Shown in pieces: positions 58,437-64,000 of a stretch of DNA of 64,000 nt. How positions within the stretch are numbered: position 1 is the first letter of the stretch; every line of letters begins with the position of its first letter. The translations under genes were made by a program, and so were the position numbers. Below the pieces are notes generated by a model. The model was not told where the DNA came from, did no database searches, and worked only from the letters and a program-made list of their open reading frames with translations. Source of the DNA: an uncultured Desulfosarcina sp. (GTDB lineage Bacteria > Desulfobacterota > Desulfobacteria > Desulfobacterales > Desulfosarcinaceae); contig CAXXWQ010000003.1 in the NCBI GenBank assembly GCA_963674945.2, forward strand, positions 1,824,001 to 1,888,000, given 5' to 3'.

Positions 58437-58781
58437 ATGGATCGAGTAGCAGTTATCGGATGCGGCGCCTACATGGACAGCGGGTACGGATGTCCGGGTG
58501 AGTGGCGGTGCCTGAAAGCGGCAGCCCTGGGTGAGGGGAAATTCGAGAGTCCGGCCCAAGTGGTCTCCTTTGTCAAATGCGAGTGTCCGGGAAGAGCCGT
58601 ACTGCCAACCGTTGGCATGGCGGCCAAACTTTCACAGATCAAACCGGATAAGATTTATCTCAGTTCCTGTCTTGTAAATGCCAAACCAGGCTGCCCCTAT
58701 ATGTCGGCCGACGAACTGGCAACGATGCTGGAAGGCAAGTTCGAGGTGCCGGTTGTTAAAGGGACCCACGACTACCACTAA
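58437..58781 (+). CDS. CGGC-domain small Cys-rich protein
   Basis: VAVIGC..CPG..C, CECPG, IYLSSC..CP, VVKGTH. Confidence 0.8.
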   Translation: MDRVAVIGCGAYMDSGYGCPGEWRCLKAAALGEGKFESPAQVVSFVKCECPGRAVLPTVGMAAKLSQIKPDKIYLSSCLVNAKPGCPYMSADELATMLEGKFEVPVVKGTHDYH

Positions 58782-62299: not shown

Positions 62300-62645
62300 A
62301 AGACCCTTTGTTCAATTTTCAAACCGATGGTTAACTGGTCACGCTGTTCGTTTCAATCGATGCCATGGGCTATTAAGGGCAACATCCTTTCATCGGGAAA
62401 GCATCCGTAAAAAAACGGACAACGGCTATCGATACCCGATTCATCCGAACCAGAGAAATACCTCTTGACTCCATTGGATGTTTTTCAGAATATCGTAATC
62501 ATCGCAAGGCCTGATATTTGATGGCCTTATCGATTTTTTGCTTTTTCCTTGATGTGATAGCATTCCTTTTTCACAGAAGTTTTGATGCGGTCTTTTGAAA
62601 GACCGGTAGTTACGACTACCTATAGCGCGATGCGGAGGTTCGGCC

Positions 62646-63989
62646 GTGACCCCTCGTAAAAACGGAACTATTGTGAGCGCCCTTCTTTTCCTGGCTTTCT
62701 TATTGATTTCGGCGCCTGCTTTAACGGCATCATCAAAAGAAGACAGTCAGTGTGTCCTCTGCCACACCAACCTGAAGAGCCTGATCCGGTTGTGCTGGAA
62801 AGTGGAAAAAATAAAACCGAAACCCAAACAATCCAGCGAGACTGCGGGTGAGGGGTGAGGCGGCCCCTTGGCTCCGTTGGAGCTGTATCAGAAAATATAT
62901 GTGGATCCGGGTTTCCTTGAAACCAACCATGGCCAAATTCCTTGTAATAACTGCCACGGCGGCAACCCCGACGATTCCAACTGGCTAACGGCCCATGATT
63001 CGATGATAAAAGATCCCACAACGAGTAAAGCCCTGGCCATTTGCGGAGAGTGCCACGAAGAGATCGCCGCCAAAGCGGTAAGCAGTCTGCACTATACGCT
63101 GGCACCTTTTTCGCGCGCCATTGCAGCCAGAATGGGCGATGTACGCAAAGACGCCCGAAAACTTGTCGATCACGCCATGGACATCCATTGCAATACCTGC
63201 CATGCCAGTTGCGGACAATGTCATGTCAGCAGACCGGATTACGTTGGCGGTGGATTTTTGGCAAAGCACCATTTCAAGAGAACACCGGACATGGATACGA
63301 CGTGTGCCAGTTGTCACGGTGGTCGTGTCTACGGAGAGTATACGGCGGCAAACGAAGACAACGAAGCCGATGTCCACTTCGACGACGAAGAAATGACTTG
63401 CATGCAATGCCACAAATCACCCGAAATGCATGCGTGTGCAACGGATGTCACCAGCCGTTTCGAACTTCCGGAACGACCGAGATGTCTGCAATGCCACGAG
63501 GACGTTGTCGCTGAGAAGCCGAAGACGCAATCACACAAAATTCACGGAAACAAGGTGGCCTGCCAGGTATGTCACGCCCAAGCCACGAAAAATTGTTACA
63601 GTTGCCACGTGGGCACCGACAAAAAGGGGCTTCCCTATTTCAAGTGCCGCAAAACCGCGTTTGACTTGAAAATCGGACTGAATCCCAGAAAAACCAAAGA
63701 CAGACCCTATGACTGGGTCGTCTTGCGGCATCCGGCTGCAGATCCGAAGATTTTCGATCACTATGTAAAAAACAGCCTGCCCGATTTCAACGCCCTTCCT
63801 ACCTGGAAACTGGATACCCCGCACAGCATCCGACGTTCGACGGCACAAAACAAGGAGTGCAATAATTGCCATGGCAAAAAGGAGTTGTTTTTGACCCGAG
63901 ATGACGTTGCTGATGGAGAAGTCGAAGCAAACCGTAGCGTGATCGTTCCGGAATCTAAAATTCCCGAACCTGTTACATCCAAACCATAA
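62646..63989 (+). CDS. Exported multiheme c-type cytochrome (11 CxxCH) with a predicted selenocysteine at TGA 62856-62858, 447 aa
   Basis: GTG start after GGAGG; signal peptide and CVLCH before the TGA; GAG GGG TGA GGC GGC CCC TTG continues in frame into 10 more CxxCH motifs; SECIS-like hairpin follows the TGA. Confidence 0.82.
62859..62885 (+). promoter_or_regulatory. Putative bacterial SECIS element
   Basis: Stem TGGCTCC / GGAGCTG with an apical GTT loop starting 17 nt after the UGA. Confidence 0.65.
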
Positions 63990-64000
63990 AGGAGGTTGAC

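Follow-up and report, generated by a model that had tools for sequence, protein, structure and literature searches.

Among multiheme selenoenzymes, MccSep (ExtKL, GSU2937-2936), a polysulfide reductase of Geobacter sulfurreducens, was the first to be characterised, and only recently (PMC13510729). Its polysulfide reduction involves selenocysteine (Sec), heme and arginine chemistry, and the enzyme also reduces selenite (PMC13510729). Another point of reference is octaheme tetrathionate reductase (OTR), whose heme II is attached through C74-H78 with Lys56 as ligand (PMC3769277), the catalytic heme having a Lys ligand and its motif His rotated away (PMC13562315). Both are found among the 119 selenoprotein families in Table 1 of PMC13188914 (2026), where three are heme-related, namely ExtKL, GSU2204 and OTR. 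In this work, we describe a gene for an 11-heme c-type cytochrome, located at 62646..63989 on the forward strand of a 64,000-nt stretch of DNA (the window) from an uncultured Desulfosarcina sp. (assembly GCA_963674945.2, contig CAXXWQ010000003.1, positions 1,824,001 to 1,888,000), whose reading frame contains one UGA. As judged from comparative sequence analysis, this UGA is very probably read through, giving one exported selenoprotein.

The frame runs from a GTG at 62646 to a TAA ending at 63989 (447 codons), and codon 71 (62856..62858), which lies in the Gly-rich loop GEG-U-GG within the peptide context ETAGEG-U-GGPLAPLE and is the putative Sec71, constitutes its only in-frame TGA. The start is preceded by a Shine-Dalgarno GGAGG (62634..62638, 7 nt upstream) and followed by a likely signal peptide (62646..62726, residues ~1-27, with a probable cleavage site at its end) and by the heme 1 motif CVLCH (C36, 62751..62765), the sole CxxCH ahead of the UGA; the other ten of the 11 motifs lie after it. 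The original prediction had described precisely this arrangement, with two open reading frames sharing one frame and split by a single TGA, the ribosome-binding site and one CxxCH before the TGA and ten CxxCH behind it, and the sequence agrees on every point. It had further placed the only signal peptide upstream, and by hydrophobicity, the sole criterion used for these calls, a hydrophobic stretch is present upstream of heme 1 in 89/89 representatives and downstream of the UGA in 0/89. The apoprotein amounts to 49.5 kDa with Cys standing in for Sec, or ~46.7 kDa minus the signal, the 11 hemes being extra.

A six-frame search located the cytochrome gene in 44 of 401 genomes of the phylum, distributed in 22 families, so that about one in nine sampled genomes carries it; one in-frame TGA was present at 45 of the 46 places, the exception being a fragment spanning residues 165-444. 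Furthermore, the gene was found in 32/251 genomes of the order, a metagenome scan confirmed 536 relatives (the best 80 were retained), and a related-locus scan of genome contigs contributed only 2 loci. For the analysis of 139 loci, from which L001 and L034-L036 were excluded as own-genome duplicates or unrelated matches, the top matches per search were taken, so the set is biased toward near relatives and non-independent; clustering at <80% identity left 77 representatives. The TGA lies between hemes 1 and 2 in 132 of these loci, two more display GEG-U-GG with their upstream part clipped, and another five stop short of the site. Whether the TGA is conserved in relatives from Desulfobacterota and metagenomes, as the original prediction had asked, is thereby answered: it is present in 134/134 linker-spanning loci, and TAA, TAG or a sense codon in none. 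Sequencing error as its origin was ruled out by these 134 loci together with contigs carrying the identical TGA from three samples in a single study, the DNA source itself possibly being among them. Some members deviate around the site: in L054, L057, L059 and L080 a Cys stands immediately ahead of Sec (GEC-U-A), three of them with another hairpin loop (GCT-TGG-TCC-GAG), and L115 has the degenerate motif EPEGER-U-RGY, lacks the rhodanese described below, and is possibly a decaying or repurposed copy.

The hairpin that had been proposed as a selenocysteine insertion sequence (SECIS), TGGCTCC-GTT-GGAGCTG, is exactly present at 62869..62885, with a 7-bp stem and a GUU loop whose G lies 17 nt past the UGA; with these features and a local folding energy of -8.2 kcal/mol it satisfies the bacterial SECIS (bSECIS) constraints of PMC13188914. 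Its closing-pair probability was 0.97-0.99 in two folding windows and 0.41 in a third with a competing fold. Single-sequence folding showed no advantage over shuffles (z -0.4 to +1.9) and was not used as support, so the case for the hairpin rests on comparison rather than on energy. In an alignment of 30 loci (29 distinct rows), 87% of cells were paired versus 70% when shuffled, and the covariation that had been called for was found, at 0.479 versus 0.186 in shuffles (which kinship alone can exceed) and at most 0.194 with slid partners. Reciprocal stem swaps turn the encoded A-P-L-E into E-P-L-A, V-P-L-E or D-P-L-D with the stem preserved, which would make the family a model example of how an RNA hairpin can drive amino-acid swaps. 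Across the 77 representatives, a single codon accounts for 93-100% of rows at each of codons 76-79; for the remaining 82 positions listed, this share is 26-74%. Of the 132 family TGAs, 101 are trailed by a strict G-loop stem, compared with 23/2790 control positions in 90 of the same genes and 1.3% of the 240,423 TGAs in the six frames of the host genome; the remaining 31/132 miss the strict test mostly via a mismatch or extra wobble pairs, and an energy of -7.5 or lower was obtained for 83/90 representatives versus 113/2790 controls. On these comparisons, the hairpin is under selection and of the bSECIS type.

Among the 150 matches listed from an exhaustive protein search, 43 are uninterrupted full-length homologs, and in 15 of these a Cys occupies the linker (e.g., GEG-C-GG in P0165), an alignment that the original prediction had proposed to look for; P0144 and P0150 are Cys-Cys forms. 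The decoding genes it had named were likewise all found, since the host genome contains selA, two copies of selB, a selD that itself has a TGA, and two UCA tRNAs including the canonical tRNA-Sec, along with dsrA and cytochrome c assembly genes. Across the family carriers, selA occurs in 42/44 and selB in the other two, a co-occurrence that is weak or uninformative because selA is present in 371/401 genomes of the phylum.

Two other ways of reading the UGA have to be weighed against Sec insertion. The second selB adjoins a selC*-type UCA tRNA with A1:U72 and U73 (G000:C3:570751-572793, minus strand), and the gene facing this tRNA is presumably YedE-like, as judged from its sequence. Both tRNA features are marks of selC* tRNA-Cys in Desulfobacterales (PMC7609411), and such a selC*/SelB*-type pair could place Cys at some UGAs of this genome. 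That the UGA studied here is read mainly as cysteine is nevertheless highly improbable, given that canonical tRNA-Sec, selA, selB and selD are also in the genome, that tblastn with the genome's own cysteinyl-tRNA synthetase (CysRS) found no truncated CysRS* in it, and that the family-wide UGA would stay unexplained unless every carrier had the pair. A separate 763-aa frame (G000:C1 ~208.7-211.0 kb, plus strand) fuses an N-terminal part that is cysteine-synthase-like by eye to a second CysRS. The alternative of two genes, with a true stop and reinitiation at a downstream TTG/GTG from GGGUGAGG as ribosome-binding site, is how gene callers split the locus: none of the 120 best database matches has 11 motifs, and suitable codons are frequent, as codon 4 past the UGA is GTG, TTG or ATG in 86/132 loci and codon 7 is TTG or GTG in 121/132. 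The latter TTG, however, is the hairpin loop itself; the downstream part lacks any signal-like stretch in the representatives mentioned above; the stop is never TAA or TAG; and uninterrupted homologs exist. Moreover, because codons 76-79 are frozen while G68-G70, which would form the ribosome-binding site, are not (0.30-0.60), conservation of the UGA as part of such a site was rejected, and we assign the two-gene explanation a nearly negligible probability. Readthrough into a single protein is thus retained, and the splitting is attributed to annotation, because none of the 120 best matches is full length (all cover 72-83% of the query); the claim that pipelines would mis-annotate the gene as two was correct. 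As the checked database records are cut at the UGA, annotation fails to show the predicted active-site residue.

The cytochrome shares with MccSep/ExtKL its nature as an exported multiheme c-type cytochrome, an annotation split at a Sec UGA that a SECIS closely follows, the existence of Sec/Cys pairs and the phylum, and a Sec, heme and Arg chemistry may also be common to both. In contrast, sequence kinship is lacking, with BLASTP to an ExtKL returning CxxCH-level pieces (best E 0.016); there are 11 hemes rather than 5; Sec is at residue 71 between hemes 1 and 2 rather than in a C-terminal immunoglobulin-like domain (U325); and the second, heme-ligating Cys of MccSep (C239) has no counterpart, as no non-CxxCH Cys is (nearly) invariant here. 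In a profile search against NCBIfam release 20, the cytochrome came nowhere near a cut-off and gave no ExtKL, OTR or GSU2204 match: NF040886 (MccSep/ExtKL, cut-off 250 bits) did not match at E 0.1, whereas the positive control L144 scored 623 bits, and TIGR04315 (OTR, cut-off 375 bits), NF041027 (GSU2204) and NF049953 (hypothetical DG) were unmatched as well, TIGR04315 matching two other genes of the host genome. ExtM, ExtN and ExtO of the Geobacter selenite/tellurite operon, absent from the Sec family table of PMC13188914, gave weak profile matches (27-50 bits versus cut-offs of 200-800; ExtM, NF040943, 26.6 versus 800 bits), and the ExtH rhodanese operon similarly unites cytochrome and rhodanese. 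A PDB sequence search returned CxxCH-driven matches, none over the whole length. Likewise, the cytochrome matches no named entry among the 119 families of PMC13188914; searching the main texts of PMC12013277, PMC13326102 and PMC13745706 by terms turned up no cytochrome, and PMC9312934 lists one cytochrome c family entry. The literature searched holds no description of this family, in line with the earlier opinion that it is not a described one, although deep-Sep tables, BSepDB records or ref. 64 of PMC13188914 may hold members. TsdA and SoxAX may resemble it in a chalcogen-at-heme chemistry within a cationic pocket, but have far fewer hemes and Cys instead of Sec, and neither appears among the listed sequence or fold matches. 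A sulfur-carrier protein is the working partner of SoxAX. MccSep, TsdA and SoxA were not among the matches listed in our fold searches, which does not thereby exclude a likeness.

An AlphaFold2 model of residues 31-447 (Cys for Sec, 116 sequences; predicted local distance difference test, pLDDT, 94, loop 86-93; predicted template modelling score 0.90) gave a confident single predicted fold across the UGA junction. Its best fold match was Shewanella OTR (1sp3; Z 9.1, root-mean-square deviation 4.5, 258 residues aligned; next best Z 4.2), and aligning the family with OTR by hhalign yielded probabilities of 97.5-98.3. According to profile alignments, hemes 3-9 run colinear to hemes I-VII of OTR and have the SLH/SHW and DVH landmarks in common with them, heme 11 weakly matches heme VIII, and hemes 1, 2 and 10 are extra relative to the eight of OTR. 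The model and alignments thus depict a distant, expanded relative of OTR, which resembles it in predicted fold and heme order without belonging to its family. With the fixed TGA, the covarying hairpin, the Sec machinery and the Cys homologs, this single-fold model supports, at the level of sequence and prediction, the original claim of one 447-aa exported seleno-multiheme cytochrome. In a complex prediction with the two halves of the Cys homolog P0165, weak support for packing was obtained (0.58 versus 0.02 for the best control), on a score whose mark is reached by 116/157 solved and 2/215 mismatched pairs and, at 0.60 or below, by 18 solved pairs and both mismatches; runs agreed in at least 69% of contacts, with a partner pLDDT of at least 62.

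Because hemes 3-9 are colinear with OTR I-VII, heme 4 (CNTCH, C182-H186, 63189..63203) is the counterpart of OTR heme II and the candidate active site. In OTR, the Cys of an NNFC motif and the loop after heme IV presumably line the active site. Between H149 and heme 4 (residues 150-181) no conserved Lys or NNFC-type Cys was found in the 77 representatives. Eleven bis-His hemes are not covered, since only nine non-motif His are (nearly) invariant (75-77/77). Arg227 (63324..63326), a candidate substrate-binding residue, is invariant in Sec forms (77/77) and present in 11/15 Cys forms and 8/20 forms with neither. The OTR-like predicted fold, the heme 4 equivalent to the OTR catalytic heme without its Lys and Cys, and the basic residues that tend to disappear along with Sec/Cys constitute the new elements of this work. 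A Sec form of OTR, as listed in PMC13188914, also occurs in the host genome, where it carries Sec at NNF-U, not in an N-terminal loop: this 13-heme OTR-family gene (G000:C4:2870082-2871350, minus strand; above the TIGR04315 cut-off, with five extra N-terminal hemes) has an in-frame TGA exactly at the NNFC Cys position, with a hairpin after it. The second OTR of the genome (C4:1477692-1479026) is a Cys form, and an octaheme paralog-like gene (L034 1348-2466; G000:C3 ~2337.4 kb) is 29% identical over residues 147-324 and has neither N-terminal hemes nor UGA.

The gene next to the cytochrome, whose AGGAGG and start fall at 63990..64000 and which continues past the window end (L001 2996-3583), encodes a sulfur-carrier protein, a single-domain rhodanese whose N-terminus is hydrophobic and which has a CRSGNRS loop. 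Where a locus is flanked by 800 nt or more on each side, a rhodanese on the same strand adjoins or is fused to the cytochrome in 74/82 cases (57/63 representatives), as detected with a profile built from the same neighbours and checked with Pfam on examples: 67 lie downstream, five are fused (L124 doubtful), two lie upstream and eight are missing. An invariable pairing was accordingly rejected. Formate dehydrogenase genes occur within 4.5 kb of the cassette in 11 loci and cytochrome b in five. Four 13-heme Sec forms (L085, L089, L113 and L116) carry two further fused hemes, most being followed by cytochrome b, which in three is shown directly behind, and two being accompanied by ResB/CcsA plus formate dehydrogenase genes; no same-strand rhodanese adjoins these four, which may represent a membrane-linked subtype. 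As for metabolism, dsrA is present in 17/43 carriers and none is shown in 26/43, so a tie to sulfate reduction was rejected.

Taking these elements together, the reading to which we give slightly more than an even chance is that of a periplasmic 11-heme selenoenzyme likely cleaving sulfane-sulfur or polysulfide chains handed over by the neighbouring rhodanese. SelB would read the hairpin and insert Sec71, and the signal peptide could thereby direct every one of the 11 heme sites to the periplasm, where they would mature. There, some nine bis-His hemes would act as an electron wire, which in some lineages formate dehydrogenase or cytochrome b would supply. Heme 4 would have lost the Lys ligand and the Cys of OTR, with the Gly-rich loop bringing Sec71 to this place as axial ligand or adjacent nucleophile, while Arg227 and other basic residues would hold an anionic sulfur chain that the rhodanese delivers or removes. 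The selenolate could then attack an S-S bond, and the hemes would reduce the Se-S intermediate with release of sulfide. On this analysis, the odds are about even that the function consists of periplasmic sulfane-sulfur/polysulfide reduction with Sec71 at heme 4 in a cationic pocket. Such an enzyme would do the job of MccSep by a second and unrelated means; the family might work like MccSep while being built like an expanded OTR, as a member of neither. A more far-reaching proposal, that in this widespread, unannotated OTR-fold family the N-terminal-loop Sec naturally replaces Lys as axial heme ligand and, together with a rhodanese, supports a second and independent way of respiring sulfur in the periplasm of anaerobes without MccSep, many of them without dsrA, appears doubtful to us. 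Binding of Sec to the heme iron, if real, would give c-type cytochromes a new arrangement of cofactors; a Sec-heme link reportedly may have precedent in P450 enzymes.

Several observations weigh against this functional proposal. Cys and Sec are both absent from the site in the other 28 of the 43 uninterrupted homologs, several of which have Trp, so the fold works without Sec. A quick tree (74 rows) requires 8 changes to account for the chalcogen-free state, of which well-supported branches force at least 5; the losses therefore appear scattered, and the residue can be lost in distant lineages. This speaks against its being essential superfamily-wide, not against Sec in the UGA forms, since scattered losses leave a fixed UGA and its hairpin unexplained. 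Trp, Arg or Gly at the site had been named as grounds for dismissing the selenoprotein; Trp does occur in several distant homologs, while the UGA forms are fixed and keep their hairpin, and the family offers a clean natural series of Sec, Cys and neither forms. Regarding structure, a shared OTR fold does not show function, and Foldseek, while ranking OTR first, scored it weakly (E 2.7e-3, TM 0.39). H181 (61/77) and H362 (67/77) could supply the two missing ligands and make all hemes bis-His. The suggested placement of Sec71 at heme 4 draws on mean-field couplings (U71-R227, G73-G225, S63-H181 and A67-P154), which point to the heme 4 region and are noisy, coming from only ~118 effective sequences. 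The columns most often lost together with the chalcogen in 97 representatives are R227, K388, R361, I140, R271 and R196, five of six being Arg/Lys, in a test of 99 columns confounded by kinship and greater divergence. Finally, eight loci are without a nearby same-strand rhodanese, and no conserved membrane anchor or electron partner was found in the cassette, whose other neighbours vary (73 scanned).

The same selenoprotein and site could also be run oxidatively or in disproportionation, with sulfur derived from sulfide or thiosulfate placed onto Sec71, electrons leaving through the hemes and the rhodanese removing the product, as in TsdA or SoxAX. All structural evidence is neutral as to direction, the 17 carriers with dsrA need no additional sulfide-forming enzyme, and His/Cys hemes act in thiosulfate oxidation (PMC13510729); yet the formate dehydrogenase and cytochrome b neighbours fit an electron-accepting role, and OTR and MccSep are reductases, so this direction seems unlikely. 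Quite unlikely, in our view, is a non-catalytic electron-transfer hub in which Sec71 merely tunes or protects one heme. The chalcogen-free homologs, the 13-heme forms with cytochrome b, the cytochrome c3 and formate dehydrogenase neighbours and the possible completion of bis-His ligation by H181 and H362 all suit it, but it leaves unexplained the rhodanese linkage or fusion, the co-loss of basic residues and the kinship to a catalytic fold. A selenium-handling enzyme that reduces selenite and loads selenium on the rhodanese for selenoenzymes such as formate dehydrogenase would account for neighbours that include formate dehydrogenase, FdhD and an UshA-like (seleno)protein, and recalls the selenite reduction of MccSep (PMC13510729) and the weak ExtM/N/O matches. 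These matches are far under their cut-offs, however, Cys and chalcogen-free forms exist, and sel genes are absent among the recurring neighbours, making this role decidedly unlikely. With an architecture unrelated to that of MccSep, the family provides a candidate enzyme by which many uncultured anaerobes might turn over sulfur or selenium.

As for the distribution of the two cytochromes, MccSep was found in 43 of the same 401 genomes and the present cytochrome in 44, with an overlap of 0 (P 0.005), whereas at family level they overlap as by chance (P 0.56); mutual exclusion, strong per genome, thus vanishes per family and is taken as a hint only. In L061 (8307-9098) and L062, the rhodanese is followed by an UshA-like (seleno)protein fragment, and upstream of the cytochrome lies a formate dehydrogenase operon that includes a LysR regulator. 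Within the window, a small Cys-rich protein that is CGGC-domain-like by eye is encoded at 58437-58781 (plus strand), and a CGGC-domain gene also stands behind the cassette in L118.

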